Shown here: positions 5,058 through 22,271 of the stretch, in pieces
Position numbering within the stretch: the stretch's first letter is position 1
Layout of the letters: each line of letters begins with the position of its first letter
Origin: Arthrobacter halodurans
GTDB taxonomy: Bacteria; Actinomycetota; Actinomycetes; Actinomycetales; Micrococcaceae
Reading direction: 5' to 3'
DNA length: 24,000 nucleotides
Assembly: GCF_041877255.1 (NCBI RefSeq)
Contig: NZ_JBHDLJ010000016.1
Location: 31,789 to 55,788, forward strand
Notes under the pieces: model-generated
The model's input: the letters and a program-made list of their open reading frames with translations, nothing else
Databases searched by the model: none
What the model was told of the DNA's origin: nothing
Translations under genes and position numbers: made by a program

Positions 5058-5236
5058 GGCTTCTCCTGTGGGTCGAGTGGTGGCACCGGCGGCCGTCTCA
5101 GTCGCCACGCTCCCGAGGACGGAAGGCTGGTGCATGTGTGAGCCTAGTCTCATGCAGCGTGTGTTTCACGCATCCACGGGCACGTCACACCCCGTTCGTG
5201 TCACGATTCGGTCACGGCCGCCCCTCCCGGCGGGCG

Positions 5237-6883
5237 CTACCGGGCGCGGCGCGCGGTCCAGGCGAGGTATCCGCCGAGCGCGCCGACCCCGCCGACCCCG
5301 GCGCGGAACAGCGCTTGCGGCCAGTGCCGCCACCGCCGCGGCTGGGCCCCCACGAGCTCGCCGACGGCGGTGATGAGCGCGGCCGTGACGACGCCGACGA
5401 CGATGCGGTTCCCCGTCCGTTCCACCCGGTCCATCAGCCGGTCCAGCTCCGCCGCCCGCAGGTGCACGTCGAACCCTCCGCGCTCGAGCACGTCGCTGAG
5501 CCGGCGGATCAGGTCGGGGGCGTCGGACCCCAGCCGCAGGCCCTCCAGGGTCAGCCGCTTGAGCCGCTCCGCGATCGCCGCGGGCGAGTAGGACTCGCGG
5601 ACGAGCCGGCGGGTGAACGGCGCGAGGGCCTCCGTCAGCTCGAACTCCGGGTTCACCTGCTTCCCCAGGCCGTCGGCCATGACCAGCATCTTCGCCAGCA
5701 GGGCCGCGTCCCGCGGCAGCCGCAGCCGGTCGCGGCGCAGCAGCCCCACCACCTCCAGGATCGCGGGGGCCAGGGGGACCTCGGAGAGCGGCCTGCCGAC
5801 GTAGCGCGCCAGCATCCGGCCCAGCGACCGCTCCAGCTCCTCGAGGTCCGCGGACGCCGACGCCCCGCACATCCGCGCCAGCGACGCAGCGAGCCGGCGC
5901 TCGTCGCGCTCCACCACCGCCACGAGCGCCCGGACGAGCTGGGCGCGGAACTCCTCGTCGATGTGGCCGACCATGCCGAAGTCGATCACGCCCAGGCTCC
6001 CGCCCGCCTCGACGAAGAAGTTCCCCGGATGCGGGTCGGCGTGGAAGAACCCGTCCTCGAAGACCATCTTCAGCAGGGCCTCGCAGGCACGGGACGCGAG
6101 CTCGTCGGTGTCCATCCCGGCGGCGCGCAGCGCCGCGGCGTCGTTGATCTTGATGCCGCGGATCCGCTCGAGCACGAGGACGCGTGACGTGGTGGCCTCC
6201 CAGAGGACCCGCGGCACGTGGATGCCGGGCACGTCGGCGAAGTTCTCCGCGAAACGCTCGGCGTTGCGGGCCTCCCGCAGGTAGTCGAGCTCGGCGCGCA
6301 GGGTGTCGGAGAACTCCTCGACCAGCGACGCGACGCCGAAGGCCGCGACGGCCGTCGAGGCCCGCTCGGCCCGCTTGGCCAGTTCCGCCAGGACCTCCAG
6401 GTCCAGGTTGATCTGTTCCACGACGCCGGGGCGCCGGACCTTCACCACGACGTCGACGCCGCCAAGCCGGGCGAGGTGCGCCTGGCCGATGGAGCCGGTC
6501 GCCAGCGGGGACTCGGCCATGGACTCCAGCAGCGGCCCTGCCGCGGCGCCCAGCTCGTCGCGGACCACCGCCCGGAGGTCCTCGACGGCCACGGGCGTCG
6601 ACGCGTCCTGCAGCTTCGCCAGCTCCGCGGCGTAGGCGGGCGGCAGGAGGTCCGGGCGCGTGGAGACGATCTGGCCGAGCTTGACGTAGACGGCGCCGAG
6701 GTCCTCCAGGGCCAGCCGCACCCGCTCCGGCAGGGAGGAGTCCCCGTCCGGCGGCGCGGGGTGGCGGGCCAGCGGGTTCCGCGGCACGTGGTGCTCCAGC
6801 TGCAGGTAGGCCAGCGCGAAACCCAGACCGTGCCGCGTCAGCGTCTGCACGATGTCCAGGAAGCGGTCCCGCCGCGCACTCAT
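5237..6883 (-). CDS. ABC1/AarF/UbiB-family atypical kinase with C-terminal TM segments
   Basis: The 548-aa ORF starts at an ATG. ABC1 motifs are present: GSIGQAHLARL..VVVKVRRPG, ELDYLREARNAERF, HADPHPGNFFV and IDFGMVG. Two C-terminal hydrophobic helices follow. Confidence 0.9.
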   Translation of the reverse strand: MSARRDRFLDIVQTLTRHGLGFALAYLQLEHHVPRNPLARHPAPPDGDSSLPERVRLALEDLGAVYVKLGQIVSTRPDLLPPAYAAELAKLQDASTPVAVEDLRAVVRDELGAAAGPLLESMAESPLATGSIGQAHLARLGGVDVVVKVRRPGVVEQINLDLEVLAELAKRAERASTAVAAFGVASLVEEFSDTLRAELDYLREARNAERFAENFADVPGIHVPRVLWEATTSRVLVLERIRGIKINDAAALRAAGMDTDELASRACEALLKMVFEDGFFHADPHPGNFFVEAGGSLGVIDFGMVGHIDEEFRAQLVRALVAVVERDERRLAASLARMCGASASADLEELERSLGRMLARYVGRPLSEVPLAPAILEVVGLLRRDRLRLPRDAALLAKMLVMADGLGKQVNPEFELTEALAPFTRRLVRESYSPAAIAERLKRLTLEGLRLGSDAPDLIRRLSDVLERGGFDVHLRAAELDRLMDRVERTGNRIVVGVVTAALITAVGELVGAQPRRWRHWPQALFRAGVGGVGALGGYLAWTARRAR

Positions 6884-6892
6884 GCCGCCACC

Positions 6893-7198
6893 CTACACAA
6901 CGAGCCGCGCCAGCGCCGCGGCCGCGGCCCCGGCCAGGACGACGACGAGGAACGGCGCGCGGAGCGCCAGCGCGGCTGCGGCCGCGAGCAGGGCCGCCAG
7001 CCGCGCGTCCACCGCGAGCGACTGGCCGGCGGCGAACGCGTTGACCGCCGTCAGCGACGCCAGCAGCCCGATGGTCAGCGTGCCTGCCGTCCGCGTCACC
7101 CGCGGGTGGTCCAGCACGCGGCCGGGCACGAGGTAGCCGAGCAGCTTCGTCGCGTAGGCGGCCGCGCAGGCGAGCAGAACCCATCCCCAGAGGCTCAT
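6893..7198 (-). CDS. azlD: AzlD-family branched-chain amino acid transport protein
   Basis: Only the last 101 codons of the 608-aa track ORF look real (MSLWGWVLLACAAAYATKLLGYLVP...). The protein is small and hydrophobic, of AzlD type. Its ATG 7198-7196 overlaps the azlC stop as ATGA. Confidence 0.8.
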   Translation of the reverse strand: MSLWGWVLLACAAAYATKLLGYLVPGRVLDHPRVTRTAGTLTIGLLASLTAVNAFAAGQSLAVDARLAALLAAAAALALRAPFLVVVLAGAAAAALARLVV

Positions 7199-7809
7199 CC
7201 CCCGCCCTCCCCCGCGGCCGGGGCGTGGCGCCGGGGGTACGGGTCGACGTCGGGCTCCAGCCCCTCGTCCGCGCGCCCGCGCCCGAACCAGCCCCAGAGA
7301 CCGGCCACGAGGGCGGCGACGAGGATCGGCACCCCGGGAGGGGCCACGGGCACGGCGAGCACGGTCACCACGGCGCAGACGACGGCGATCGCCACCGGCT
7401 CGCGGGCGCGCAACCGCGGCCAGAGCAGCGCGAGGAAGGCGGCGACGGCGGCCCCGTCCAGACCCCACGCCCGCGGGTCTCCGAGCGCGTCGCCCAGGAG
7501 CGCGCCGGCGACCGTGAAGAGGTTCCACATCGCGAAGACGCCGATGCCGGCGACCCAGAACCCCCGGCGCTGTTCGTCCGGGTCCAGCTGGCCGGAGGCC
7601 GTGGCGGCGGACTCGTCGATGGTGAGCTGCGCGGCGACGGGCCGGCGCCACCCGGCGGGCCGGAGCAGCGCGTTGAGCTGCATCCCGTAGACCGCGTTGC
7701 GCACCCCCAGCAGCGTGGCGGCGCCGAAGGCCGCCGAGCCCGCGCCTCCGCCCGCGACGACCCCCGACGAGGCGCGGCGCCGCGAGCACCACGCGGCACA
7801 GGAGCGCAA
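7195..7809 (-). pseudogene. azlC: AzlC-family protein, apparently 5'-truncated
   Basis: Similarity to AzlC starts only at the mid-protein motif LLGVRNAVYGMQLNALL and runs to the C-terminus. The first ~30 codons are non-hydrophobic and overlap the 5' end of the divergent AI-2E gene. The usual ~60-80 N-terminal residues (two TM helices) have no room upstream. Confidence 0.55.
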
Positions 7810-8881
7810 GGGCCAGGTCCACTGGACCGACAGCCTGAGTTGGGCCGGCGAGCGCGCGCGCCAGATCCTGCTGCTGCTGGTCCTCGCGGCGGTGCTGGTC
7901 TACGGGCTGCTCAAGGTCACGCTCGTGGTCATCCCGGTGTTGCTGGCGCTGATCCTGGCCGCGGCCACCACCCCGCTGGTGCGCTGGTTGCGGCACCGCG
8001 GGTGGCGGGAAACGCCGGCGACCACCGGCACGTTCCTGGCGCTCATCGCGGTCTTCGCCGGCGTCGTGGCGGGCGTCGTGCTCACCATCCGCAGCGAATG
8101 GTCCACGCTGGCCGAGCGCGCCAGCCGGCGGTTCGACGAACTCGCGGCGGTGCTGCAGGACGGCCCGCTGCCCGTCGACGAGGCATCGCTCGAGAACCTC
8201 GGGACCGCCGCGCGGGACTTCGCCACCAGCAGCGCCGCCGGCGGGCGGGCGACCGACAGCCTGTTCGTCGCCACCGAGCTGCTCACCGGCTTCATCCTCA
8301 TGGCGGTGGTCCTCTTCTTCCTGCTCAAGGACGGGCACCGGATCTGGGCGTTCTGCCTCATCCCCTTCCGCGGCCGGCAGCGCGCCAAGATGCGCCTTGC
8401 CGGGATGGCGGGCATCGACGTGCTCGGTGGGTACGTCCGCGGCACCGCGATCGTCGCGCTCGTCGACGCCGTGCTGATCGGCGCCGCGCTCTTCGTCCTC
8501 CAGGTCCCGCTGGCCGCGCCGCTCGCCGTCGTCGTGTTCGTCGGCGCGTTCATCCCGCTGATCGGCGCCACGGCGGCGGGCGTCCTGGCGGCGGTCGTCG
8601 CTCTCGTCGCCAACGGGCCGGTCGTGGCGCTCATCGTCGCCGCCGTCGTCGTGCTGGTCAACCAGCTGGAGGGCAACCTGCTCCAGCCCGTGGTGATGGG
8701 CAAGACCCTGAGCGTCCACCCGCTGGTCATCCTGCTCGCGCTGACGGCCGGCACCGTCCTGGCCGGGATCATCGGCGCCATCCTGTCGGTGCCGCTCACC
8801 GCCGTCGCCTGGGCGATCGCGAAGATCTGGATCGGCGACCGCTTCGGTGCGCGCGCGTCGGCCGCGGGCGCGGACGGCTAG
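7697..8881 (+). CDS. AI-2E family transporter (PerM/YhhT-like)
   Basis: Multi-TM protein with typical family blocks (VIPVLLALILAAATTPLVRWLRHRG, FLLKDGHRIW, FIPLIGATAAGVLAAVVAL, NQLEGNLLQPVVMGKTLSVHPLVILLAL). The start is uncertain: TTG at 7697 or GTG at 7715. No later start codon occurs before TM1. Confidence 0.85.
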   Translation: MRTPSSVAAPKAAEPAPPPATTPDEARRREHHAAQERKGQVHWTDSLSWAGERARQILLLLVLAAVLVYGLLKVTLVVIPVLLALILAAATTPLVRWLRHRGWRETPATTGTFLALIAVFAGVVAGVVLTIRSEWSTLAERASRRFDELAAVLQDGPLPVDEASLENLGTAARDFATSSAAGGRATDSLFVATELLTGFILMAVVLFFLLKDGHRIWAFCLIPFRGRQRAKMRLAGMAGIDVLGGYVRGTAIVALVDAVLIGAALFVLQVPLAAPLAVVVFVGAFIPLIGATAAGVLAAVVALVANGPVVALIVAAVVVLVNQLEGNLLQPVVMGKTLSVHPLVILLALTAGTVLAGIIGAILSVPLTAVAWAIAKIWIGDRFGARASAAGADG

Positions 8882-8907
8882 GCTACTCCCCAGACGAGGG
8901 AGGCCCG

Positions 8908-10266
8908 ATGCGGCGCAACGTGTTCACCCGGACCCGCCAGGCCCTGCGGTCGGAGCTGTGGCCGGTTCCGACGCTGGCCGTCGTGGCCGCGATCGCCCTG
9001 GGCGTGGCGTTGCCGCAGCTCGACGCGGCCCTCGACGGCCGGACGGCGGACTCCGTCTCCCGCTACCTCTTCGGCGGCGGGCCGGAGGCGGCCCGCTCGG
9101 TCCTCGAGTCGATCGCCGGGTCCCTCATCACCGTCACCTCCCTGACGTTCTCCCTGACCGTCGTGACGCTGCAGCTGGCGAGCAGCCAGTTCTCCCCGCG
9201 CCTGCTGCGCACCTTCACGGGCGACCGCTTCGTCCACGTGACGCTGGCCCTGTTCCTGGCCACCTTCTCCTACGCGCTGACGGTCCTGCGCACGGTGCGC
9301 ACCGCACCGGAGGCCGGGCAGGCCTTCGTCCCCGAGATCTCGGTGACGTTCGCGTTCGTCCTGGCGGTCGCGAGCGTCCTCGCGCTGGTGCTCTTCCTGG
9401 CCCACCTGACCCGGGAGATCCGCGTGGAGACCATGATGATGCGCGTCCACGCGGAGACGAATTCCGTGATGCGGCACGCCTACCCCGAGGACGCCGCGTC
9501 CGGGCCCGGGCCGGTCCCGTCGCGGCCGCCGGCCGGCACGGACACCATCGAGGCGGAGAAATCCGGCTTCCTCACCTCCGTCGACACCAGCGCGATCCGC
9601 TCGGCGGCCCGCGAGGCCGGCGCCGTCGTCGCGGTCGACCGCGGCCCCGGGTCGTCGCTGGTCCGCGGCACGCCCTTCGCCACGTTCTGGCCGGCGGACG
9701 GCCGGCTGGCGCTCGCGGCGGACGACGCAGAGCGGTTGCGGCGCGCGGTCAACGCGGCCATCGGCACCGGCCCGGAGCGGACGGCCGCCGAAGACGTCGG
9801 ATTCGGGCTGCGCCAGCTCGCGGACGTCGCCGCCAAGGCGCTCTCCCCCGGCATCAACGACCCGACGACCGCCGTCCACGCGCTGGGCCACGTCTCGGAT
9901 CTGCTGTGCCGGCTCGCGGAGCGCCGGGTCGGCCCGCTGCTGGTGGCCGACGACGACGGGGGAGGCGGCGTGCGCGTCGTCGTGTCCCGGCCCGGCTTCG
10001 CGGAACTGCTGGATCTCGGCGTCGCGCAGGCCCGGCAGTACGGGATCGACGACCCGGACGTCGCCGCCCGGATCCTGGAGCTGCTGCGCGAGGTCGCCTG
10101 GTGCGACCGCTCCGGCTCGCACACGGCGGCCCTGCGGGACCAGCTGGCGCGGACCCGCGAGGCCATGGCCGCCGCCGCGTACGGAAGCGCCGAGCGCGGC
10201 CGCCTCGAGGCGCTGGGCGGCGCCGTGGGGGACGCGTTGCGCGGCCCGGGCGCAGGCTCCGCCTAG
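8908..10266 (+). CDS. DUF2254 domain-containing membrane protein
   Basis: ATG at 8908 preceded by GAGGGAGG. The N-terminal region is typical of DUF2254 (LESIAGSLITVTSLTFSLTVVTLQLASSQFSPRLLRTF), followed by a soluble C-terminal domain. The first 561 codons of the 1013-aa track ORF are shadow sequence. 452 aa. Confidence 0.8.
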   Translation: MRRNVFTRTRQALRSELWPVPTLAVVAAIALGVALPQLDAALDGRTADSVSRYLFGGGPEAARSVLESIAGSLITVTSLTFSLTVVTLQLASSQFSPRLLRTFTGDRFVHVTLALFLATFSYALTVLRTVRTAPEAGQAFVPEISVTFAFVLAVASVLALVLFLAHLTREIRVETMMMRVHAETNSVMRHAYPEDAASGPGPVPSRPPAGTDTIEAEKSGFLTSVDTSAIRSAAREAGAVVAVDRGPGSSLVRGTPFATFWPADGRLALAADDAERLRRAVNAAIGTGPERTAAEDVGFGLRQLADVAAKALSPGINDPTTAVHALGHVSDLLCRLAERRVGPLLVADDDGGGGVRVVVSRPGFAELLDLGVAQARQYGIDDPDVAARILELLREVAWCDRSGSHTAALRDQLARTREAMAAAAYGSAERGRLEALGGAVGDALRGPGAGSA

Positions 10267-11892: not shown

Positions 11893-13143
11893 ATGGGCAT
11901 CACGACCGACGAAGAGCGGGCCGCGGCGCTGCGCCGCATGAAGCGCGTGGCCACCGGGCTGCTCGTGGCCATGGCCGCGGTGTTCTCGGTCGCCTTCGCG
12001 CTGCAGGACCGCTACCCGTGGCTCGAGTACGTGCGCGCCGCGGCGGAGGGCGGCATGGTGGGCGCGCTGGCCGACTGGTTCGCCGTCACCGCCCTGTTCC
12101 GGCACCCGCTGGGCCTCCGGATCCCGCACACCGCCATCATCGCCCGCAAGAAGGACCAGATCGGCGAGAGCCTCGGCGGGTTCGTCCAGGAGAACTTCCT
12201 CTCCGACGCCGTCGTGACCGAGAAGGTGGGCAACCTGCGGTTCGCCGCGGCCGCCGGCGCGTGGCTGGCGCGGCCGGCGGGCGCGGAACGCGTCGCCCGG
12301 GAGGGAGCGACCGCGATCCGCGGACTGCTCGACGTCCTCGACGACGAGGACGTCCTGCGGCTCGTCGAGTCGCTCGCGCGCCAGCACATGCTCGCCCCGC
12401 AGTGGTCCTCCACGCTGGGACGGATCCTGGAGACGGTGGTCCGCGACGGACACCACCGGCAGCTGGTGGATCTCGTGGCCGACCGCGCCGGCGCGTGGGT
12501 CGCCGCGAACCGCGAGACCGTCGTCGGGCTGGTGTCCGACCGCTCGCCCTCGTGGCTCCCCGGCATGCTCGACCACCTCGTGGGCGACCGGGTGCACCGG
12601 GAGCTGGGGAAGTTCATCGCGGCCGTGCGCGCCGATCCGGACCACGCGGTGCGCCGCAGCGTGGACGCCTGGCTCGCGGCGTTCGCGGCCGACATGCAGC
12701 GCGACCCCGACACCATCCAGAAGGTCGAGCGACTCAAGCACTCCGTCCTCGGCGATCCGCAGCTGCGCGAACTGGCGGCCACCGGCTGGTCCAGCGTGAA
12801 GGCCGCGCTGGTGGACGCCGTGGAGAACCCGGAGTCCGAGCTGCGGCGGTCGTTCGTGCGGGCCGTGGCGGACTTCGGTCGCCGGCTCAGCACGGACGAG
12901 CGCCTCGCCGGCAAGGTGGACGCCTGGATCGCCGGCGCGGCGACCTACCTGGTGCGCACCTACCGCGGGCAGATCGCGGGCGTGATCCAAGAGACCGTCG
13001 CGTTGTGGGACGGTGAGGAGACCAGCCGGAAGATCGAGCTGCAGGTCGGCCGCGACCTCCAGTTCATCCGGATCAACGGCACCGTCGTCGGCGCGCTGGC
13101 CGGCCTGGCGATCTACACGACGGCGAGCGCGCTCCTCGCGTGA
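11893..13143 (+). CDS. DUF445 domain-containing membrane-associated protein
   Basis: ATG at 11893 after GAGGGAGGA. GALADWFAVTALFRHPLGLRIPHTAIIARKKDQIGESLGGFVQENFL is the DUF445 signature region. A C-terminal TM helix is present. 416 aa. Confidence 0.8.
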   Translation: MGITTDEERAAALRRMKRVATGLLVAMAAVFSVAFALQDRYPWLEYVRAAAEGGMVGALADWFAVTALFRHPLGLRIPHTAIIARKKDQIGESLGGFVQENFLSDAVVTEKVGNLRFAAAAGAWLARPAGAERVAREGATAIRGLLDVLDDEDVLRLVESLARQHMLAPQWSSTLGRILETVVRDGHHRQLVDLVADRAGAWVAANRETVVGLVSDRSPSWLPGMLDHLVGDRVHRELGKFIAAVRADPDHAVRRSVDAWLAAFAADMQRDPDTIQKVERLKHSVLGDPQLRELAATGWSSVKAALVDAVENPESELRRSFVRAVADFGRRLSTDERLAGKVDAWIAGAATYLVRTYRGQIAGVIQETVALWDGEETSRKIELQVGRDLQFIRINGTVVGALAGLAIYTTASALLA

Positions 13144-13182
13144 GCGGCGGCACCGCGCGCGTCGTCCCCGGCCCCGCGCCCG

Positions 13183-13902
13183 CTACAGCAGGCCCCCGAC
13201 GACGTTCGCGATCCGTGGCGACGGGCTCACGCCGAACTCGGCCTTGAGCCGCTCGGAGAAGTCCTCGTACACGCGGATCATCTTGGCCTGGTCGCCCTCG
13301 GCCCGGTAGGTCTCGAGCAGGAGCCGGTGCGCGTTCTCCCGCCACGGGTCGATGTCGACGGCGCGGAGGGCGGCCTCCTTGGCCCGCTCGATCTCCCCCG
13401 CCGCGAGGCATTCCGCGGAGAGCCGTTCGAGGACGGTCAGCCGCATGCGTTCCCAGCGGTCCTGCTCCGCCAGCACCCAGTCCTCGTACCAGCCCGGCAA
13501 CAGTTCGGCGTCGCTCAGCAGCGCCAGCAGCTCGCCGCGTTCGCGGGATCCCCGGGAGACGTCCGCGGCATGGGCGCGACGGCGGATGTCGTCGGCGTCC
13601 ACCACGACGTCGGCGGACAGGGCCATCGGCTGCATCCCGCCGCCGGGGACCAGGCCGCCGGAAAGGAGCCCCGGCAGCTGGTGGTTGATGGTCCAAATGG
13701 TCTCCCGCAGGCTGCCCGTGGCCTGCTTCTCCGTGCTGTTGGGCCAGAGGAGCCCGGCCAGGAGGGCCCGCGGCTGTGGTCCCCGCAGCGCGAGGGCCGT
13801 GATCAGGCGCTGCTGCCGAAGTGTGACCTTGACGGGTTTGCGGCGGTGCAGCAGGCGCCACGTGCCGACGATCTCGACGTCCCAAGACTGTGTGTTCATC
13901 AT
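13183..13902 (-). CDS. SARP/AfsR-family transcriptional activator (OmpR-type winged helix plus BTAD domain)
   Basis: 239 aa. The N-terminus has the SARP DNA-binding pattern (VEIVGTWRLLHRRKPVKVTLRQQRLITALALRGPQPRALLAGLLWP...SLRETIWTINHQLP). The C-terminal BTAD part reads ELLPGWYEDWVLAEQDRWERMRL...IDPWRENAHRLLLETYRAEGDQAKMIRVYEDFSERLKAEFGVSPSP. Confidence 0.85.
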   Translation of the reverse strand: MMNTQSWDVEIVGTWRLLHRRKPVKVTLRQQRLITALALRGPQPRALLAGLLWPNSTEKQATGSLRETIWTINHQLPGLLSGGLVPGGGMQPMALSADVVVDADDIRRRAHAADVSRGSRERGELLALLSDAELLPGWYEDWVLAEQDRWERMRLTVLERLSAECLAAGEIERAKEAALRAVDIDPWRENAHRLLLETYRAEGDQAKMIRVYEDFSERLKAEFGVSPSPRIANVVGGLL

Positions 13903-14066
13903 TCAATGCCCCAAGCGATATCCAGCGTCGTCCTGCCAGCCGTCCGGCGCGCGCTCCCCAGGCGCCCGTGGAGGTAGAAATTTCCCGCTCATCCTTCACC
14001 ATCCAGCATTGGCAGGGACCGGACCAAAGTCAACAGTTGTGAAGGCCGTGACGCAACACGCGGGTA

Positions 14067-14110
14067 ATAACGCACGGATAACAGCCGTGTAACGGGAGAG
14101 AGGTTCAACT
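14067..14110 (+). promoter_or_regulatory. candidate SARP operator and promoter upstream of the aspartate kinase gene
   Basis: Three direct repeats ATAACG (14067), ATAACA (14078) and GTAACG (14089) sit at exact 11-bp spacing, followed by TCAACT at 14105-14110. The same layout recurs at 15574-15617. The region lies 46-89 bp upstream of the ATG at 14156, in a lower-GC divergent intergenic region. Confidence 0.55.
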
Positions 14111-14155
14111 GCAAGTGCATTGACAAGCATTAAACACGGGGACCAGGAGATAGCC

Positions 14156-15559
14156 ATGCCGTACATCGCCCACTCAAGCAGTTCCGGGCCTACGGCCCAC
14201 CCTCTCGGCGCTGCGGAGGGCACGCTTCCCCTGGGCCGGGCGAGCATCGTGGTGCAGAAGTTCGGCGGGTCGTCCGTCGCCGACGCGACGGCGATCCGGC
14301 GCGTCGCCCGGAGGGTGCTCCAGACCCACCAGTCCGGCCACCCGGTCGTCGTCGTCGTCTCCGCCATGGGCGACACCACCGACGAGCTGCTGGACCTGGC
14401 GGCGCGCGTGACCGACACGCCGAAGGCCCGCGAGCTCGACCTGCTGCTCTCCAGCGGCGAGCACGTCTCCGCTTCCCTGCTCGCCCTCGCGCTCGCGGAC
14501 CTGGGCGCGCGGGCGCGGACCTTCACGGGGGCCGACACGGGCCTGCTCACGGACGACACGCACGGCACGGCCCACGTGGTCTCCGTCGACCCGCGCCGCA
14601 TCCGGGCCGCGATCGAGCGCGGCGAGATCCCGATCGTCGCCGGATTCCAGGGGAGGTCCCGGAGGACACGCGAGGTCACCACGCTCGGCCGCGGGGGGTC
14701 CGACATCACGGCCATCGCCCTCGCCGCCGCCCTCAACGCCTCGGTGTGCGAGATCTTCACGGACGTCGACGGGGTGTTCACCGCGGATCCCCGCGTGGTC
14801 CCCACGGCCCGCAAGATCGACACGATCTCCAGCGAGGCGATGCTCGAGCTCGCGGCCTGCGGGGCCAAGATCCTGCACGTGCGCTGCGTCGAGTACGCGC
14901 GGCGCTTCGGGGTCACCCTCCACGTCCGCTCCTCGTTCACGCCGGGCGAGGGCACGGTGGTCCTTCCCGGCGCACCGGCGGTCCTGGTCGATCCGACGGG
15001 CAAGGCGCCCGAGGACGGGATCGTGTCCGCCATCGCCGTGGAGCGCTCGACGGCGAAGATCACCCTCGGCGGCGTCCCCGACGTCACCGCGGCCGCTGCC
15101 CTGCTGGCGGGCGTGGCCGCCCGGGCGAGGCTGCGGATCGACATGGTCGTCCAGCGACCCGCCGCCGGGGACGGGGACCACGCGAGCATCGCCTTCACCG
15201 TTCCCGCGGCGGACGGGCGGCACGTCATGGACGAGCTGGCCACGCGCCGGCCGGTCGCGCGCTTCCGGTCGCTGCACTACGACGACCGCGTGGGGATCCT
15301 GTCGCTCGTGGGCCACGGCATCCGCCACGACGCCGCACTCTCGTCCCGCTTCTTCCGCTCGCTCGCGGAGGCCGGTGTCAACATCGACGTAATTTCCGCA
15401 TGCGAGTCGCGCGTCAGCGTGATGGTCGATGAGGGTTCGCTGGACGTCGCCTGCGAGGCGCTGGCGCGGGCCTTCCCCGGCGGCCCGCCGAGGGACCGCC
15501 AGCCGGGACGCGCCCCGTCCCACGCGGCGGGCCGCATCCACGCGCCGGCGGCCGGTTAG
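14156..15559 (+). CDS. ask: aspartate kinase (cluster-situated paralog)
   Basis: ATG at 14156 after CCAGGAGA. Kinase core motifs are VVQKFGGSSV, VVVVSAMGDTTDELL, LLSSGEHVSASLLALAL, LGRGGSDITAIALAAAL, TDVDGVFTADPRVVP and AACGAKILHVRCVEYA. Two ACT-like regions follow. The protein also has a ~30-aa N-terminal and a ~30-aa C-terminal extension. 467 aa. Confidence 0.9.
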   Translation: MPYIAHSSSSGPTAHPLGAAEGTLPLGRASIVVQKFGGSSVADATAIRRVARRVLQTHQSGHPVVVVVSAMGDTTDELLDLAARVTDTPKARELDLLLSSGEHVSASLLALALADLGARARTFTGADTGLLTDDTHGTAHVVSVDPRRIRAAIERGEIPIVAGFQGRSRRTREVTTLGRGGSDITAIALAAALNASVCEIFTDVDGVFTADPRVVPTARKIDTISSEAMLELAACGAKILHVRCVEYARRFGVTLHVRSSFTPGEGTVVLPGAPAVLVDPTGKAPEDGIVSAIAVERSTAKITLGGVPDVTAAAALLAGVAARARLRIDMVVQRPAAGDGDHASIAFTVPAADGRHVMDELATRRPVARFRSLHYDDRVGILSLVGHGIRHDAALSSRFFRSLAEAGVNIDVISACESRVSVMVDEGSLDVACEALARAFPGGPPRDRQPGRAPSHAAGRIHAPAAG

Positions 15560-15573
15560 GCGGGCGCCCGGAA

Positions 15574-15617
15574 CCAACGCACCGATAACGCCGCAATAAC
15601 GCCGCCGTCCATCAAAT
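15574..15617 (+). promoter_or_regulatory. candidate SARP operator and promoter upstream of the transaminase-synthetase pair
   Basis: Three direct repeats CCAACG (15574), ATAACG (15585) and ATAACG (15596) sit at exact 11-bp spacing, followed by TCAAAT at 15612-15617. The offset from the third repeat is 14 nt, the same as at 14067-14110. The block AACGCAC(C/G)GATAAC is shared between the two sites. Confidence 0.55.
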
Positions 15618-15718
15618 GAAGGCTTGGCGGTCCGTCCCCGGGGAGGGGCGAACCGCTCGGCAGCTCCAGCCAGCGTCGAAGGAAGTCGGGGGAAACCCGA
15701 CGCAAGGAGGAAACCACC

Positions 15719-17110
15719 ATGACCGCACAACCCGAAGTCGCCACCCTGGCCGGCCTCACGGCCCCGGACGTCTCGGGCCCCGTGCCCGGGCCGAAGTCCG
15801 CGCAGATGCTCGCGCGGCAGGCGGCGCGCGAATCGAACGCGCGCAGCTACCCGCGGCGCCTGCCCATCGCCATCGACGAGGCGCACGGGAGCTTCGTGCG
15901 CGACGTCGACGGCAACGTCTTCATCGACTTCCTTGCCGGTGCCGGCGTGCTGTCCCTCGGGCACAACCATCCCGAACTCGTGGCCGTCGCCACGGAACAG
16001 CTCGGCAGGCTCACCCACGGGTTGGACTTCCCCACGCCGGCAAAGGAGGCGTTCACCGACGCCCAACTGTCGATGCTGCCCGCGGCCATGCGCGAACGCA
16101 CGAAGATCCACTTCTGCGGCCCGACCGGCGCCAACGCCGTCGACGCCGCGGTCAAGCTCTGCAAGACGGCCACCGGACGGGGCGACATCGTGGCGTTCCG
16201 GGGTGGCTTCCACGGGGCCAGCGCCGTCGGCATGGCCCTCACCGGGCTGGTCGAGCAGAAGGCCCCGGTCCCCAACGGCGTTCCCGGCGTGCACTTCTTC
16301 CCGTTCCCGTATGCCGCCCGCCCCCCGTTCGGCGGGACCCCGGAGGATTGCGGCCGGCTTTGCGCCGACTACTTCGAAAACGCGCTGCGGGACGACCATG
16401 GCGGGGTGGCCCTGCCCGCCGCGGTGATCCTTGAACTGGTCCAGGGCGAAGGCGGCGTCATCCCCGCCCCCGTGGAATTCGTCCAGCGCGTCAGGGCCGT
16501 GACCCGGGAGCTGGGGATTCCGCTGATCGTCGACGAGGTGCAGACCGGCTGCGGGCGCACCGGCACCTGGTTCGCGTTCGAGCAGTACGGGATCGAACCG
16601 GACGTCATCGTGGCCTCCAAGGCCCTCAGCGGCCTCGGAACACCGGTCGCGCTGATCATGTACGACAAGTCGTTGGACGTCTGGGCCCCCGGCGCGCACA
16701 CCGGAACGTTCCGCGGCAACCAGCTGGCCTTCGCCGCGGGCGCCGAGGCCGTGCGGATCTTCCGGCGCGACCGCGTGCTGGAGAACGTGCGGGAACAGGG
16801 CGAGCGCATCGGCGGGCTCTTCGGCGCCCTCCGCGACCTGCCGTGGGTCCTCGAGGTGCGCGGCCGGGGCATGATGTGGGGCATCGAACTGGTCGACCCG
16901 CTCGACGGGCAGCCCGACGGCGCGCTGGCCCGCGCGGTCCAGGACCGCCTGTTGCAGGAGGGCCTCATCCTGGAGACCGGTGGCCGCGGCGGCGGCGTGG
17001 TGCGCCTCCTGCCGCCCCTGAACTCCAGCTCCGAGGTGGTCGAGACGGCCTGCCGGCTGATCATCGACGCCGTGACGGAGCTCGGGGCGGAGCGGGCGGT
17101 CGCGCCATGA
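15719..17110 (+). CDS. ectB: diaminobutyrate--2-oxoglutarate transaminase (EctB/Dat/PvdH family, class III PLP aminotransferase)
   Basis: ATG after AAGGAGG. 463 aa. The protein is collinear with EctB along its length: SNARSYPRRLPIAI, IDFLAGAGVLSLGHNHP, HGLDFPTPAK, GPTGANAVDAAVKL, LVQGEGGV, DEVQTGCGRTG, the PLP-lysine region ASKALSG and HTGTFRGNQLAF. Confidence 0.88.
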   Translation: MTAQPEVATLAGLTAPDVSGPVPGPKSAQMLARQAARESNARSYPRRLPIAIDEAHGSFVRDVDGNVFIDFLAGAGVLSLGHNHPELVAVATEQLGRLTHGLDFPTPAKEAFTDAQLSMLPAAMRERTKIHFCGPTGANAVDAAVKLCKTATGRGDIVAFRGGFHGASAVGMALTGLVEQKAPVPNGVPGVHFFPFPYAARPPFGGTPEDCGRLCADYFENALRDDHGGVALPAAVILELVQGEGGVIPAPVEFVQRVRAVTRELGIPLIVDEVQTGCGRTGTWFAFEQYGIEPDVIVASKALSGLGTPVALIMYDKSLDVWAPGAHTGTFRGNQLAFAAGAEAVRIFRRDRVLENVREQGERIGGLFGALRDLPWVLEVRGRGMMWGIELVDPLDGQPDGALARAVQDRLLQEGLILETGGRGGGVVRLLPPLNSSSEVVETACRLIIDAVTELGAERAVAP

Positions 17111-20100
17111 CGATGCTCGCCGGTGGCCCCGGGGACCAGCTCCAGGGGACCGTCCTGGGGGCCCCGGAGGCCGACGACGCGATCCGGTGGAGGCCGGGGC
17201 AACGTCTGGACACACTCTTCGAGGAGCGGTGCGACGCCCTGGCGGCCGCGGGGAGGTCCGCGCAGCTCGCCGTCGACTCCCCGGACGCCACCCTCACGTA
17301 CGGCGAGCTGGACGCGGCGGCCAACCGGCTGGCCCGCTACCTCGCGGCGCAAGGCGCGGGTCCCGGCACGAGGGTCGCGCTGCTCTTCGACCAGCCCGTC
17401 CGCTCCTACGTGGCGCTCCTGGCCGTGCTGAAGACGGGCGCGGCCTACGTCCCGCTCGACGCGGGCTTCCCGGAGGACCGGCTCGCCTACATCGTCGGGG
17501 ACGCGGGCGTCAGCCTGGTGCTGACACTGTCCCACCTCCGTGCGAAGCTGCCGCGGATCGCCGCGCGGACGCTGTGCCTGGACGAGGAGGACCCGGCGGT
17601 CGCCCGCCAGGATCCCTCCCGGCCGGCGCGGGAGGCCGTCGGTGCGACCGCCGGCGAGCTCGCCTACATCATCTACACCTCCGGGTCCACGGGACGCCCC
17701 AAGGGGGTCGCCGTGGACCACCCGAGCATCTGCAACTTCGTGCTCGTGGCCGCGGAAACCTACGGCTACGAACCCGGGGACCGCGTCTACCAAGGCATGA
17801 CGATCGCGTTCGACTTCTCGGTCGAGGAGATCTGGGTGCCGTGGATGGTGGGGGCCACGCTGGTGCCCAAGCCCGGGGGCTCCGCGCTCCTGGGCATGGA
17901 CTTGAGCGACTACCTGCAGGAGCGCCGCATCACCGCCATGTGCTGCGTCCCGACGCTGCTGGCCACCCTGGACGAGGACCTCCCCGGGCTGCGCTTCCTG
18001 CTGGTCTCCGGCGAAGCCTGCCCGAAGGACCTGGTCACGCGCTGGCACCGGCCGGGGCGCCGCTTCCTGAACGTCTACGGCCCCACCGAGGCCACGGTGA
18101 CCGCGACGTGGGACGTGGTCCATCCGGACAAGCCCGTCACGCTCGGCGTGCCGCTGCCGACGTACTCCGCCGTGATCCTGGACCCCGAGGAGGCGCGAGC
18201 GCTGCCCGCGGGCGAGCTCGGGGAGATCGGCATCGCCGGGATCGGCCTCGCCCGGGGCTACGTCAACCGCGACGATCTCACCGAGCGGGCGTTCATCCCC
18301 GACTTCCTCGGGATCGAGAACAACCCGTCGGGGAGGATCTACCGCACCGGCGACCTGGGGCGGTTCACGCCCGAGGGCACCATCGAGTACCTCGGCCGGA
18401 TCGACACGCAGGTGAAGATCCGCGGCTACCGGATCGAGCTGTCGGAGATCGAGTCGGTGCTCCTCGAGCACCCCGCGATCGCCCTCGCCGTCGTGGACAC
18501 CCACAGCCCGGCGCCCGGCGTCGTCGAGCTCGCCGCCTACTACACCCTGCGCGGGGACGCCGCGGGGCTGGACGAGGCCGAGCTGGACCGCGCGCTCCGC
18601 GAGCGACTGCCCGCGTACATGGTGCCCGCCTACCTCGACCGGCTCGACACCATCCCCCTGATGCCCAGCGGCAAGGCGGACCGGAAGAACCTTCCGGCCC
18701 CGACCGCCCGGCGCGCGGGCGGCAACGCGGCCGCGTACGTGCCCCCGGAGACGGATGCCGAACGCGCGCTGGCCGAGCAGCTGGGCGCCGTCCTGGGCCT
18801 AGAGCGGCCCTCGGTCGACGCGCACTTCTTCGACGACCTCGGGGCCAACTCGCTGCTGATGGCCCACTTCTGCGCCGGGATCCGCAGGCACACGGATCTT
18901 CCCTCGGCGGCCATGCAGGACGTGTACCAGCAGCCCACGCTCCGGCGCCTCGCGGCGATGCTGGAGGCCGAGCGGATGGCCGCCGAGCTCGCGTCCGCGG
19001 GCGCGGAACCGGCCGCGCCTCCCGCCCCCCGGCCGGCCCCGAGCTCGCTCAAATACACGCTCACGGGCGCGGCGCAGCTGCTGTTCTTCCTCGGCTACAC
19101 CACCTACGCGGCGCTCCTGCTGGTCTTCTCCTTCACGTGGGTCTCCGCGGCCCCGACGCTGTTCGAGCTCTGGCTGCGCAGCATCGCGTTCGGCGCCGGC
19201 ATGTTCGTGGTCCTGACGATCACGCCCGTGCTGTTCAAGTGGGCCCTTGTGGGGCGCATGAAGCAACAGGTGATCCCACTCTGGGGGCTGGGCTACCTGA
19301 GGTTCTGGATCGTCCGGCTGGTGACCCGGGCCAGCCCCATGGCCGCGTTCGTCGGATCCCCGCTCTATGTCGTCTACCTCCGAATGCTCGGCGCCAGGAT
19401 CGGCAAGGGCGTCTCCATCTTCTCCCGCATCGTGCCCGCCTGCCCCGACCTCATCAGCATCGGCGAGGGCACCGTCATCCACAAGAACGCCGTTATGCTC
19501 GGCTACCGCGTCCGCCGCGGCGTGATCGAGACGGGCCCGGTCACGATCGGCAACAACGTCCTGGTGTCCCAGAAGACGGTCTTCGACATCGGCACCGCCA
19601 TGGGCGACGACTCGCAACTGGGCCACGCGTCCGCGCTGCACGAGGGGCAGTCGGTGCCCGCCGGCGAGGTCTGGCACGGATCGCCCGCCGTCCCCGCGGC
19701 CACGAGCTACGCGCGGATCCGGCCCCGGCGCTGCGGGACCCGCCGCCGCGTGGTCTTCAGCGCCTTCCAGCTCTTCAACCGGCTGGTGCTGGTCGTGCCC
19801 GGCGGCCTAATCCTGCTGGCCGGGCTGCTGCCGGGCTACCTTGAGACGGGGCACCTCGAACCCACGAACCCGCTGTTCTACCTCGACGCGGCGCTCCTGT
19901 CGCTGGCGCTCTTCATCGGCGGCATGGTCAGCGGCCTAGTCGCCGTGCTCACGGTCCCGCGGCTGCTCAACCTCGCGACGCCGGCCGAGACCACCTTCCC
20001 GCTCTACGGGATCCGCTACGCGCTCCACCGCATGGTCCTGGCGCTGACAAACATCAAGCCGTACCTGACACTCTTCGGGGACAGCTCGTACATCGTCCAC

Positions 20101-21192
20101 TACCTCAAGGCGTTGGGGTGGGACCTCGGCAAGAAGATCGACCAAACGGGGTCCAACTTCGGTCCCGGCGTGGCCCACGACTCCCCGTACCTCAGCAAGG
20201 TCGGCTACGGCACCATGGTCTCCGACGGCCTGAACATGATGAACGCGGAGTACACGAGCACGTCGTTCCGGCTCTCGGTCGTGGAGATCGGCGACCGCAA
20301 CTTCCTGGGCAACGACATCACCTGGCCCATCGCGTCCCGGGTCGGCGAGAACTGCCTCCTGGGCACCAAGGTCCTCGTGCCCATCGACGGGCCGGTCCGC
20401 CGCGACGTCGGGCTCCTCGGCTCGCCGGCGTTCGAGATCCCCCGCTCCGTCCAGCGTGACAGCCAGTTCGACGACCTGAAGCTGGAGGACGCCAAGAGCC
20501 GGCTGCTCCCGGCCAAGAACCGGCACAACATCGGTTCCATGGCCCTGTATCTGGCCCTGCGCTGGTTCCAGCTCTTCTCGGCGACCGTCATCGGCGCGCT
20601 CTCCGTCGCGCTCTACGACGTGCTGGGCGTGCTCGCCGTCGGCGCCGGGACGCTCATCTTCCTGGTCTATGGCATCCTCCTGTCCGCCTTCGCGGAGCGG
20701 GCGGTGCTGGGGTTCGGGCGGCTCGAGCCGCGGTTCTGCTCCATCTACGACCCCTACTTCTGGCACCACGAGCGCCTGTGGAAGCTGCTCGGCGGGGCGC
20801 CGTTCACGGGGACCCCCTTCCGGCCCATGGTGTGGCGCCTCTTCGGCGTGAAGGTCGGCAAGCGCCTCTACGACGGCGGAGGCGGCCTGGTGGAAAAGAC
20901 CCTGGTCTCGATCGGCGACGACTGCGAGCTGAACGAGGCGTCCATCCTGCAGGGGCACTCCCTGGAGGACGGAACCTTCAAGTCGGGCCACATCACGCTC
21001 GGGAACGGCTGCACGATCGGGGTCGCCGCCTTCATCCACTACGGGGTGAACCTGCAGGACGGCGCGGAAGTGGCGGCTGACTCGTTCCTGATGAAGGGCG
21101 AGGACCTGCCGGTGGACAGCCTCTTCGGCGGCAACCCGGCCCGCGAGCTGGATCCGGCCCGGCAGCTGCGGCGCGTGGCGGCGACCGCCTAG
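17107..21192 (+). CDS. Pls-like single-module NRPS (homopoly(amino acid) synthetase architecture): A domain, PCP, then three repeats of two TM helices plus a hexapeptide-repeat domain
   Basis: The ATG at 17107 overlaps the transaminase stop as ATGA. 1361 aa. A-domain cores are YGELDAAANRLA, LAYIIYTSGSTGRPKGV, FDFSVEE, NVYGPTE, GELGIAGIGLARGY, YRTGDL, GRIDTQVKIRGYRIEL and PSGKADRK. The PCP carries DDLGANSL. The region downstream has six hydrophobic helices in three pairs, alternating with three left-handed-beta-helix/acetyltransferase-like domains. Confidence 0.9.
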   Translation: MTMLAGGPGDQLQGTVLGAPEADDAIRWRPGQRLDTLFEERCDALAAAGRSAQLAVDSPDATLTYGELDAAANRLARYLAAQGAGPGTRVALLFDQPVRSYVALLAVLKTGAAYVPLDAGFPEDRLAYIVGDAGVSLVLTLSHLRAKLPRIAARTLCLDEEDPAVARQDPSRPAREAVGATAGELAYIIYTSGSTGRPKGVAVDHPSICNFVLVAAETYGYEPGDRVYQGMTIAFDFSVEEIWVPWMVGATLVPKPGGSALLGMDLSDYLQERRITAMCCVPTLLATLDEDLPGLRFLLVSGEACPKDLVTRWHRPGRRFLNVYGPTEATVTATWDVVHPDKPVTLGVPLPTYSAVILDPEEARALPAGELGEIGIAGIGLARGYVNRDDLTERAFIPDFLGIENNPSGRIYRTGDLGRFTPEGTIEYLGRIDTQVKIRGYRIELSEIESVLLEHPAIALAVVDTHSPAPGVVELAAYYTLRGDAAGLDEAELDRALRERLPAYMVPAYLDRLDTIPLMPSGKADRKNLPAPTARRAGGNAAAYVPPETDAERALAEQLGAVLGLERPSVDAHFFDDLGANSLLMAHFCAGIRRHTDLPSAAMQDVYQQPTLRRLAAMLEAERMAAELASAGAEPAAPPAPRPAPSSLKYTLTGAAQLLFFLGYTTYAALLLVFSFTWVSAAPTLFELWLRSIAFGAGMFVVLTITPVLFKWALVGRMKQQVIPLWGLGYLRFWIVRLVTRASPMAAFVGSPLYVVYLRMLGARIGKGVSIFSRIVPACPDLISIGEGTVIHKNAVMLGYRVRRGVIETGPVTIGNNVLVSQKTVFDIGTAMGDDSQLGHASALHEGQSVPAGEVWHGSPAVPAATSYARIRPRRCGTRRRVVFSAFQLFNRLVLVVPGGLILLAGLLPGYLETGHLEPTNPLFYLDAALLSLALFIGGMVSGLVAVLTVPRLLNLATPAETTFPLYGIRYALHRMVLALTNIKPYLTLFGDSSYIVHYLKALGWDLGKKIDQTGSNFGPGVAHDSPYLSKVGYGTMVSDGLNMMNAEYTSTSFRLSVVEIGDRNFLGNDITWPIASRVGENCLLGTKVLVPIDGPVRRDVGLLGSPAFEIPRSVQRDSQFDDLKLEDAKSRLLPAKNRHNIGSMALYLALRWFQLFSATVIGALSVALYDVLGVLAVGAGTLIFLVYGILLSAFAERAVLGFGRLEPRFCSIYDPYFWHHERLWKLLGGAPFTGTPFRPMVWRLFGVKVGKRLYDGGGGLVEKTLVSIGDDCELNEASILQGHSLEDGTFKSGHITLGNGCTIGVAAFIHYGVNLQDGAEVAADSFLMKGEDLPVDSLFGGNPARELDPARQLRRVAATA
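17209..18700 (+). other. adenylation (A) domain of the synthetase
   Basis: Core motifs A1-A10 were read directly from the translation. The A10 lysine lies in PSGKADRK (nt 18664-18687). Boundaries are approximate. Confidence 0.85.
18736..18966 (+). other. peptidyl carrier (T/PCP) domain of the synthetase
   Basis: ETDAERALAEQLGAVLGLERPSVDAHFFDDLGANSLLMAHF. The predicted phosphopantetheine-attachment Ser codon is tcg at 18850-18852 (residue 582). Confidence 0.8.
19045..21189 (+). other. membrane-embedded C-terminal polymerisation region (TM1-2, C1, TM3-4, C2, TM5-6, C3)
   Basis: TM pairs lie at about 19060-19260, 19750-19970 and 20527-20715. Hexapeptide-repeat domains lie at about 19381-19690 (LGARIGKGVSIF...VWHGSPA), 20101-20445 (LGWDLGKKIDQTG...LLGSPAFEIPR) and 20833-21150 (FGVKVGKRLY...LFGGNPAREL). 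No HHxxxDG condensation motif and no GxSxG thioesterase domain were seen. Confidence 0.75.
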
Positions 21193-22271
21193 TCGTCCGT
21201 CCCGGCCTCGCCCAAGGCAAGTGTCGCGTGCATGAGGGCGTCCGCCATCGTCTCCAGGACCTCCGGGTCGACGTTGCCCAACGTGTCGCAACTGCGGTGG
21301 TAGCAGGAGTCGTACTTGTCGCCGGGCGTACCGCCGAACGCCGCGGCCTCGGGGTCGGACTTGGACCCCTCGTCCCCCGTGAAGAGGCCGCCGGACGGGA
21401 TGTCCCGGTCCAGGAAGGCCTGGTAGTCGGACCCGCCGTCGAACTCCGTGGGTCCCGCCAGGACGCCCGCGGCGGAGAAGTGGTCCAGGAACACCCGCTC
21501 GATCTCCCCGGAGCCGTTCGGGAGGCGGCCGCCATAGTCCGACCCGTCGCCGTCGTAGACCAGGACGACGCCGTTCGGCGAGCCCACCATGTCCAGGTTC
21601 AGGTACGCCAGGTGCTGTTCGGCCTGCTCGTCGGAGAGCCCGTCGACATAGTGCTCCGAGCCGTACAGGCCGTCCTCCTCGCCACCCCAGAAGGCGAAGC
21701 GGATCCTGTTGGGCGGGACCGTGCCCGATGCGGCCAGCCGCACGGCCACCTCCAGCACCGCCGCGACCCCGCTGCCGTTGTCGTTGATGCCCGGGCCCCG
21801 CGCCACCGAGTCCAAGTGCGCCCCGAGGACGACCGTGCGGGAGGCGTCGCCGGCCGTGTCGGCGACGATGTTGAACGTCTCGATGTCCCTGTCGCGCCGG
21901 CCCTCGTGGCTGAATCCCTGGCGCACCGGGTCGTAGCCGGCGCCGCGCAGGCGGTCCTCCACGTACGCCGCCGAGGCCTCGTAGCCTCCGGTGCCCGACG
22001 CCCGGTTCCCGCCGTTGGCGTCGGCCGCCTCCTGCAGGGCCTCGAGATGCGCGCGCAGCCCCGCTTCGCCCACGCCGGCCCGCAGCTCCGCGCTGTCCGG
22101 GGCCGTGCCGATCTCGATCCCGGGCCGGGACGAGCACCCGGTCAGCACGAGTGACGCCGTCGCGGCGGCGGCGAGCCAGGGGGCGGCGGCGTGCCAGGGG
22201 GCGGCGGCGTGCCAGGGGGCGGCGGGGGCGCGGCGGCGTGTCGACCGTCGGTGGGTGGGGCGGCGTGTCAT
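21189..22271 (-). CDS. M28-family zinc aminopeptidase, predicted lipoprotein
   Basis: 360 aa, starting at an ATG. The signal peptide has a lipobox LVLTGCSS. M28 metal-ligand blocks are present (VVLGAHLDSV, GINDNGSGVAAVLE, FAFWGGEEDGLYGSEHY, LNLDMVGSPN), as is the C-terminal CYHRSCD. Its stop shares the tetranucleotide CTAG with the synthetase stop. Confidence 0.88.
   Translation of the reverse strand: MTRRPTHRRSTRRRAPAAPWHAAAPWHAAAPWLAAAATASLVLTGCSSRPGIEIGTAPDSAELRAGVGEAGLRAHLEALQEAADANGGNRASGTGGYEASAAYVEDRLRGAGYDPVRQGFSHEGRRDRDIETFNIVADTAGDASRTVVLGAHLDSVARGPGINDNGSGVAAVLEVAVRLAASGTVPPNRIRFAFWGGEEDGLYGSEHYVDGLSDEQAEQHLAYLNLDMVGSPNGVVLVYDGDGSDYGGRLPNGSGEIERVFLDHFSAAGVLAGPTEFDGGSDYQAFLDRDIPSGGLFTGDEGSKSDPEAAAFGGTPGDKYDSCYHRSCDTLGNVDPEVLETMADALMHATLALGEAGTDD
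22176..22225. repeat. 18-bp tandem repeat (2 perfect units plus a partial third) inside the peptidase signal-peptide coding region
   Basis: ccagggggcggcggcgtg occurs at 22176-22193 and again at 22194-22211, and 14 nt of a third copy follow from 22212. On the minus strand it encodes AAPWHA-AAPWHA-AAPWLA. Confidence 0.85.

Follow-up and report, generated by a model that had tools for sequence, protein, structure and literature searches.

Why does the gap between an aspartate kinase gene (ask) and the transaminase gene behind it carry a second copy of the repeat module that stands upstream of ask? The question is raised by a stretch of 24,000 nucleotides from Arthrobacter halodurans (contig NZ_JBHDLJ010000016.1, positions 31,789 to 55,788; G+C content 72%), herein called the window, in which ask, the transaminase gene, and a gene for a single-module synthetase follow each other, and a gene for a small activator from the family of Streptomyces antibiotic regulatory proteins (SARPs) lies divergently upstream. 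An identical sequence is found in NCBI assembly GCA_054511335.1, contig JBTNCV010000024.1. The answer favored here, at a probability of roughly 0.77, is that the segment 15574-15617 is a promoter inside the operon that depends on this SARP and lacks a -35 element. It draws on the fold of the regulator, the co-occurrence of box and SARP gene across loci, the conservation of the box in the gap, the fixed geometry of a -10-like hexamer, and the promoter rule published for SARPs; from these, we infer SARP binding, a transcription start site, and activation at the second module. The two modules consist of the following elements, with both start sites predicted from the position of the hexamer.

14067-14094, + strand: SARP box 1, upstream of ask, with ATAACG at 14067, ATAACA at 14078, and GTAACG at 14089, at a spacing of 11 bp.
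14105-14110, + strand: -10-like hexamer TCAACT of box 1, 16 nt from the start of repeat 3; predicted transcription start site at about 14117-14119.
15574-15601, + strand: SARP box 2, starting 14 nt past the ask stop codon, with CCAACG (15574-15579), ATAACG (15585-15590), and ATAACG (15596-15601), at a spacing of 11 bp.
15612-15617, + strand: -10-like hexamer TCAAAT of box 2, 16 nt from the start of repeat 3; predicted transcription start site at about 15623-15626.

Both boxes have the same orientation and the block AACGCAC(G/C)GATAAC in common; beyond the repeat cores and the hexamer, they share little sequence. The module pair had been described in a first-pass annotation of this DNA, whose coordinates for the repeats, the hexamers, and the shared block, as well as for a leader hairpin and a ribosome-binding site treated below, all read back correctly from the sequence. 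Its hexamer offset of 14 nt has to be replaced by 16 nt from start to start (a 10-nt gap), equal in both sites. The pattern RTAACR-N5-RTAACR-N5-RTAACR (up to three mismatches) matches only twice on both strands of the 24 kb, namely at the 14067 and 15574 modules, and was absent from all 100 dinucleotide-preserving shuffles of the window, which bears out the earlier view that two such three-repeat modules are unlikely to arise by chance. Likewise, window matches to the two-repeat version (up to one mismatch) are confined to the two modules, versus 0.06 matches expected, and an estimate assuming independent and identically distributed nucleotides gives approximately 4e-5 exact module matches over all DNA scanned. 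The pair of repeat/hexamer modules is real and non-random.

The candidate reader of these repeats is encoded next to box 1.

13183-13902, - strand: gene of the small SARP-family activator, 239 aa, divergent from ask, called by its GC3 frame (G+C content at third codon positions) and by Pfam BTAD.

Pfam places BTAD (PF03704) at residues 122-234 of the regulator with E = 2.5e-17 and 64 bits, where the cut-off is 22.1. For the N-terminal domain, no match was returned by NCBIfam, and a phmmer search against PDB sequences matched the regulator to AfsR marginally (E = 0.0025). A family assignment of the N terminus by sequence alone thus failed, and the matter was resolved by structure prediction and fold search. 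In an alignment of 34 homologues—which form a clade mostly of Arthrobacter and other Micrococcaceae—the N-terminal segment is kept as RQQRLItALAL-G-rPR--LAGLLWPdSse-QA-GSLR-siW. The AlphaFold2 model built from this alignment reaches a pLDDT (predicted local distance difference test) of 94.2 and a pTM (predicted template modeling score) of 0.88. A Foldseek search of the PDB with this model returned six matches in all at E ≤ 0.001, which belong to the SARP domain of AfsR and to EmbR. The AfsR matches 8k60_I/J and 8hvr_I come from transcription-initiation complexes and superpose with TM scores (template modeling) of 0.76-0.77 over approximately 243-247 columns; the others are the Mycobacterium tuberculosis EmbR structures 2fez and 2ff4. 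The superposition on AfsR and EmbR spans the full regulator model (about 243 columns, with proteins of 239-250 residues). Because a high-confidence model superposes on both, the regulator is, by its predicted fold, a small SARP that combines an OmpR-type DNA-binding domain with a BTAD domain, the former being recognized through the fold match only.

The module and this type of regulator travel together. Throughout the approximately 1.36 Mb of related actinobacterial DNA that was scanned, the module occurs almost exclusively beside homologues of the window's SARP. A transaminase search of genome contigs gave 80 loci, nearly all with an adjoining Pls-type synthetase, and only five of these, the Arthrobacter and Crystallibacter loci L001-L004 and L006, show the arrangement of a SARP gene divergent from ask with the transaminase gene following. 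The box, at up to one mismatch, is present in 5/5 of the SARP-bearing transaminase loci versus 0/75 of those without this SARP (Fisher p = 4e-8). In each of the five, a module of three RT(A/G)ACR repeats stands in the gap between SARP gene and ask, and the hexamers at +16 read TGAACT, TCAACT, TCATAC, TCAACT, and TATAAG in the order of the loci. Equivalents of box 1 in the same gap are found in the metagenome loci L085-L087 and L094 as well. The metagenome search used the SARP alignment as query and gave box-bearing SARP loci in the range L085-L146; boxes adjoin SARP homologues of just 35-44% identity to that of the window (L105, L121/L124, L123, L138, and L146). A co-oriented open reading frame (ORF) lies within about 20-155 nt of nearly every module that has enough flanking DNA. 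Some clusters hold several modules (three each in L001 and L094), and the box also stands in front of operons that are distant from any other box, as in L081 at 5003 and in L001 at 8170. In A. mobilis (L081), ATAACG/ATAACA/ATAACG with TCCACT (5003, - strand) is located directly 5' of an operon for a PALP enzyme and a split Pls-type synthetase. A second L081 box (9856, - strand) adjoins the SARP gene, and this SARP-proximal box is separated from the PALP-synthetase operon by transposase genes of the IS110 and DDE types (5103-7794).

Some surroundings of these modules are worth recording in their own right. The L081 region 3732-10000 is possibly a cluster of the poly-diaminopropionate type. The third module of L001 (8170-8213) and L094 (462, - strand) consists of three RTAACR repeats with TCCAAT at +16; it lies downstream of the transaminase gene and also of an ORF for a 212-aa lipoprotein with an HExxH motif, resembling zinc metalloproteases (L001 7501-8139), and is followed by a 24-codon ORF (L001 8299-8372) overlapping the next ORF, which starts with GTG, where both contigs end. 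Locus L091 shows at 1940-2120 (- strand) at least nine tandem 11-nt units AGTA(A/G)CGC(C/A)G(C/G), resembling an expanded run of SARP-box units, and then four 13-nt units AGCGTCCACCCGC, with a SARP homologue (44% identity) about 3 kb away. Crystallibacter degradans SF27 holds two paralogous SARP-ask-transaminase loci, L003 on contig s9 and L004 on contig s11. A Pls-type synthetase gene lies upstream of the SARP gene in L004 and is convergent with it, and no synthetase is found within 6 kb of the transaminase gene in L003 and L006. L083 (A. mangrovi) and L084 (an ENA contig) have SARP homologues, 53% identical, placed between two GCS2-family genes; no box, no ask or transaminase gene, and no synthetase gene lie nearby, so these two loci are uninformative. 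Their SARPs appear to be orphan regulators left behind by cluster loss. Finally, a Propionibacteriaceae metagenome-assembled genome (L036) has a weak GAAACG/ATAACA/ATAACC (5854-5892, two mismatches) just 5' of its transaminase gene, at a locus where tblastn found no SARP.

The counterpart of box 2, in the gap between ask and the transaminase gene, is found in three further loci. It reads ATAACA/GTAACG/GTAACA in L001 (5867), ATAACG/GTAACG/GTGACA in L086 (1840, - strand), and ATAACG/GTAACA/GTAACA in L094 (2765, - strand), each with TCCAAT. The offset of the hexamer is identical in these three and the window, even at a divergence that leaves the SARPs 53-56% (full tblastn match) and the ask proteins 59-66% identical to those of the window. 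In the four-way alignment, 10/18 columns of the repeat cores and 5/6 columns of the hexamer are invariant, along with 4/20 of the spacers within the module and 19/86 of the leader. Only box-bearing lineages have kept a long gap between ask and the transaminase gene. L086 has, directly behind the ask stop codon and ahead of the box, a perfect GC-rich hairpin of 15 bp (approximately 1880-1920, - strand; minimum free energy -48.9 kcal/mol, z -4.5). It looks like a terminator without T-tract or a structure at an mRNA end, and the L086 transaminase gene must therefore rely on a promoter of its own. The window has no hairpin between the ask stop codon and box 2 (z +1.7).

The geometry of the hexamer was analyzed over 23 non-redundant modules, with the hexamer positions lying outside the search pattern. 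The 11-bp periodicity of the repeats holds throughout. At the fixed offset, T occupies +16 in 23/23 modules, A occupies +19 (position 4) in 18/23, T occupies +21 (position 6) in 19/23, and G follows at +22 in 17/23; the consensus of the region is T-[C/G]-[A/C]-A-[A/C]-T-G (14105-14111 and 15612-15618 in the window, plus 21 other modules). Published SARP targets are direct repeats with a spacing of 11 or 22 bp, of which the 3' repeat lies 8 bp away from the -10 element, overlapping a poor -35 element (PMC10936776, PMC11301090, PMC10972967). The protomers sit side by side, one per repeat, and make contact with region 4 of sigma, the beta flap, beta', and the alpha subunit's C-terminal domain, which offsets weak promoter elements; sites with three repeats are known for DnrI, ActII-ORF4, VlmI, and FdmR1 (PMC10936776, PMC11301090, PMC10972967). 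The -10 element of the afsS promoter, CACTGT, is suboptimal as well (PMC10936776). In the window, the distance from repeat 3 to the hexamer amounts to 8 or 9 bp, depending on whether TAACRNN or RTAACRN is taken as the heptamer, the hexamer being only -10-like (TNNANT), and repeats 2 and 3 lie where a -35 element would stand relative to it. A scan of 13800-15800 returned neither a sigma-70 promoter of the TTGACA/TATAAT type nor an intrinsic terminator, which fits both a promoter that needs an activator and read-through from ask.

Put together, these features suggest the following course of events. The small SARP (13902 to 13183) would bind side by side as an oligomer on the three RTAACR repeats, one helical turn apart, and cover 15574-15611. 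The promoter-proximal protomers would fill the place of the absent -35 element and recruit the RNA polymerase holoenzyme to the weak TCAAAT hexamer, 16 nt past the start of repeat 3. Transcription would start at about 15624 and yield a leader of approximately 95 nt, behind which come the genes for the transaminase and the Pls/PosA-type synthetase, coupled in their translation. The same SARP would drive ask from the box 1 module (14067-14110). Since ask and box 2 have no terminator between them, read-through from ask is likely, and the internal promoter would probably be additive, raising transaminase-synthetase expression above the level that read-through supplies. An internal regulated promoter for this gene pair had been proposed in the first-pass annotation. 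Computationally, the proposal is well supported by the SARP fold, the tracking of box and SARP gene, the conservation of the gap box, the L086 hairpin, and the lack of a sigma-70 promoter, all of which are read from sequence and predicted structure.

Several observations weigh against an internal SARP-dependent promoter. Box 2 opens with a degenerate repeat, CCAACG. The canonical -11 A (position 2 of a -10 element) is present in just 2/23 modules; the register or identity of the -10 element is therefore uncertain, and the hexamer could be an unusual -10 element or one whose register is shifted by 2 nt. With a threshold as permissive as E ≤ 1, Pfam still misses the OmpR-type DNA-binding domain (Trans_reg_C) of the regulator. 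In L002-L004 and L006, the gap between ask and the transaminase gene is short or lacks a box, and the ask-proximal box stands alone; hence, the internal promoter would be a trait of one sub-lineage and not essential to such clusters. The last point, together with the poor -10 element and the want of any terminator or strong hairpin between ask and box 2, where read-through alone could serve, also favors the explanation that box 2 binds the SARP without a promoter role—be it as an auxiliary operator tied to box 1 by looping or cooperative binding, as a site of roadblock or anti-termination for the ask transcript, or as a degenerating leftover from a previous gene order—and that transcription of the three genes comes from about 14.1 kb only. 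This is unlikely, because box 2 shares the orientation of box 1, and its hexamer keeps exactly the same offset, with 5/6 positions unchanged among four diverged loci. The long gap, kept only where the box is present, and the terminator-like hairpin just 5' of the L086 box argue in the same direction, as does the placement of modules directly in front of operons far from other boxes elsewhere (L081 at 5003, L001 at 8170). That the likeness of the two modules reflects chance, or a recent local duplication without function, is effectively refuted. AT-rich hexamers do stand out visually in DNA of 72% G+C, and beyond this, the idea has the standing of a general possibility. It is countered by the shuffles and the expected match number given above, by the scant similarity of the two sites outside repeat cores and hexamer, and by the conservation of the module across genera.

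It is also conceivable that a different regulator of the OmpR family reads the repeats, alone or in competition with the SARP. Boxes of the GlnR type have the form GTnAC, and the GTAAC/GTGAC cores at 11-nt spacing resemble the a-site of GlnR; the expected product, moreover, is a nitrogen-rich polymer. A documented precedent is the competition of AfsR and PhoP for one repeat site, the shared afsS site (PMC10972967). A GlnR- or PhoP-type reader is nevertheless very improbable, given that all 75 homologous loci without this SARP lack the module, even though global regulators of that kind occur widely among actinobacteria. The module follows SARP homologues into unrelated gene contexts, and none of the 23 modules shows the alternation with a GlnR b-site (GaAAC). 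The remaining alternative places the control of the transaminase gene in the leader instead, at the level of translation initiation or mRNA stability. Three elements matter here.

15624-15718, + strand: predicted leader of approximately 95 nt, derived from the position of the hexamer.
15685-15701, + strand: hairpin GTCGGG-GGAAA-CCCGAC with a 6-bp stem, 2 nt 5' of AAGGAGG.
15704-15710, + strand: ribosome-binding site AAGGAGG of the transaminase gene, whose ATG is at 15719; a purine-rich ribosome-binding site is likewise placed in the orthologues.

The first-pass annotation had assigned a possible regulatory role to the hairpin. The stem is present as described, and its perfect GC-rich pairing, its stability (-11.8 kcal/mol, z -3.6 versus shuffles of the 27-nt segment), and its closeness to the ribosome-binding site speak for such a role. 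The assigned role itself did not hold up, as the stem is not conserved and shows no covariation: in L001, L086, and L094, only 4/6 positions pair, interrupted by mismatches and without compensatory changes. Taken as a whole, the leader is not folded more stably than shuffles, with z -1.68 in the window and +0.07, +0.97, and -0.13 in three orthologues, and the ribosome-binding site is unpaired in the predicted fold of minimum free energy. Control by this hairpin is accordingly improbable, and a function of it is possible but unsupported. Two related candidates were rejected. A riboswitch or known leader RNA fails for want of an Rfam match (none at E ≤ 1 in 13000-18000), and a conserved structured leader fails because none of the leaders of the four loci folds better than shuffles.

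The SARP-dependent internal promoter would serve a gene set whose members were called by GC3 framing together with Pfam and NCBIfam scans.

14156-15559, + strand: ask, pathway-specific aspartate kinase, 467 aa; Pfam AA_kinase and ACT, NCBIfam NF005155 at 440 bits against a cut-off of 346.
15719-17110, + strand: diaminobutyrate--2-oxoglutarate transaminase, 463 aa; Pfam Aminotran_3 at E = 8e-82, NCBIfam TIGR00709 at 445.9 bits against a cut-off of 401.6.
17107-21192, + strand: single-module synthetase of the Pls/PosA family, 1361 aa; Pfam AMP-binding and PP-binding, NCBIfam TIGR02353 ('Pls/PosA family NRPS', nonribosomal peptide synthetase) at 636.8 bits against a cut-off of 423.1.
21189-22271, - strand: M28 peptidase; Pfam Peptidase_M28 at E = 1.2e-45, convergent with the synthetase gene with a 4-nt overlap of the ends.

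The combination of ask, a 2,4-diaminobutyrate (Dab) transaminase, and a Pls/PosA synthetase identifies this, as judged from the predicted proteins, as a poly-diaminobutyrate-type cluster with a divergent regulator gene. The synthetase consists of an adenylation (A) and a thiolation (T) domain and a C-terminal membrane/tandem domain (the terminal domain of TIGR02353); Pfam recognizes A, A_C, and PP-binding in it and, in the same scan, no condensation (C) or thioesterase (TE) domain. Its ATG overlaps the stop codon of the transaminase gene (ATGA). Neither a PddB-like racemase nor a DapF-like domain is present among the ORFs scanned near the cluster, which are only part of the window's ORFs, and the predicted monomer is therefore probably L-Dab. 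The M28 peptidase is possibly, though uncertainly, associated with the cluster and could be a polymer-degrading or self-protection enzyme; the pattern scans of the window gave no SARP box 5' of its gene. On the far side of the regulator gene, a gene for a DUF445 protein (+ strand, database gene call) ends at 13143.

SARP boxes and multiple SARP-dependent promoters per cluster are textbook knowledge for antibiotic clusters of Streptomyces, and no new regulatory principle is revealed by this locus. New here are the recognition sequence RTAACR, the diverged small-SARP clade of Arthrobacter-like bacteria, and the Pls/PosA-type cationic polymer clusters as its target; a literature search, with the motif itself not among its terms, returned nothing relevant to Arthrobacter SARPs. 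The locus extends the SARP architecture of repeats and -10 element, well studied in Streptomyces, to a diverged clade whose recognition sequence is new, and it flags an unusual -10-like element. A wider generalization is tentative and, at present, rather doubtful. It would hold that the three-repeat RTAACR box plus T-[C/G]-[A/C]-A-[A/C]-T-G is the operator code of an uncharacterized, Micrococcaceae-centered clade of small SARPs. These would act as master switch of polycationic Pls/PosA clusters with different monomers (Dab here, probably diaminopropionate by way of the PALP enzyme in A. mobilis), with two or three box-dependent promoters per cluster and a -10 element that is usable without the near-essential -11 adenine. 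The regulation of homopoly-amino-acid clusters of the Pls type is poorly understood and many of these clusters are silent. An activator and a box that are both defined, together with two predicted promoters in each cluster, offer a testable handle for switching on production, for which SARP overexpression, transplantation of the box, and use of the motif to predict regulons in Arthrobacter-like genomes are possible routes.

Compared with the SARP promoters of Streptomyces (ActII-ORF4, DnrI, RedD, and the 'afs box' of AfsR/afsS), the modules of the window are alike in their 11-bp direct repeats, in the three-repeat format (as for DnrI and ActII-ORF4), in what may be a distance of about 8 bp between the 3' repeat and a weak, putative -10 element, and in a box that would replace the -35 element. 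The systems further have in common a cluster-situated activator, a fold of OmpR-type DNA-binding domain plus BTAD, and several promoters per cluster, which are predicted ones here. An example of a Streptomyces SARP repeat is TCGAGCG. The repeat described here is RTAACR, as opposed to CGTT(T/C)ATCG in Streptomyces (PMC10972967). Also different are the host clade, which herein comprises Arthrobacter-like Micrococcaceae, the divergence of the DNA-binding domain beyond the reach of Pfam Trans_reg_C, and the hexamer without the -11 A.

On the biosynthetic side, the closest comparison is the pdd cluster of Streptoalloteichus hindustanus for gamma-poly-D-2,4-diaminobutyrate, in which PddA-PddD are biosynthetic, with PddB being the racemase, PddC the transaminase, and PddD the pathway-specific Ask (PMC8225329). 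Three enzymes recur in both clusters: the aspartate kinase dedicated to the pathway, the diaminobutyrate-2-oxoglutarate transaminase, and the synthetase of the Pls type (PMC8225329). They differ in that the ORFs scanned here included no PddB-like racemase and in the gene order of the window, which has the SARP gene divergent from ask, transaminase gene, and synthetase gene; SARP control is not described in the available part of the pdd report (PMC8225329). The synthetase resembles the epsilon-poly-L-lysine synthetase Pls and other homopoly-amino-acid synthetases of the Pls/PosA family by having an A-T module with a TIGR02353 terminal domain and no classical C or TE domain. Unlike in the Pls system, the precursor genes (ask and the Dab transaminase) point to Dab and not to lysine, and the control proposed here is that of a cluster-situated SARP acting on two boxes.

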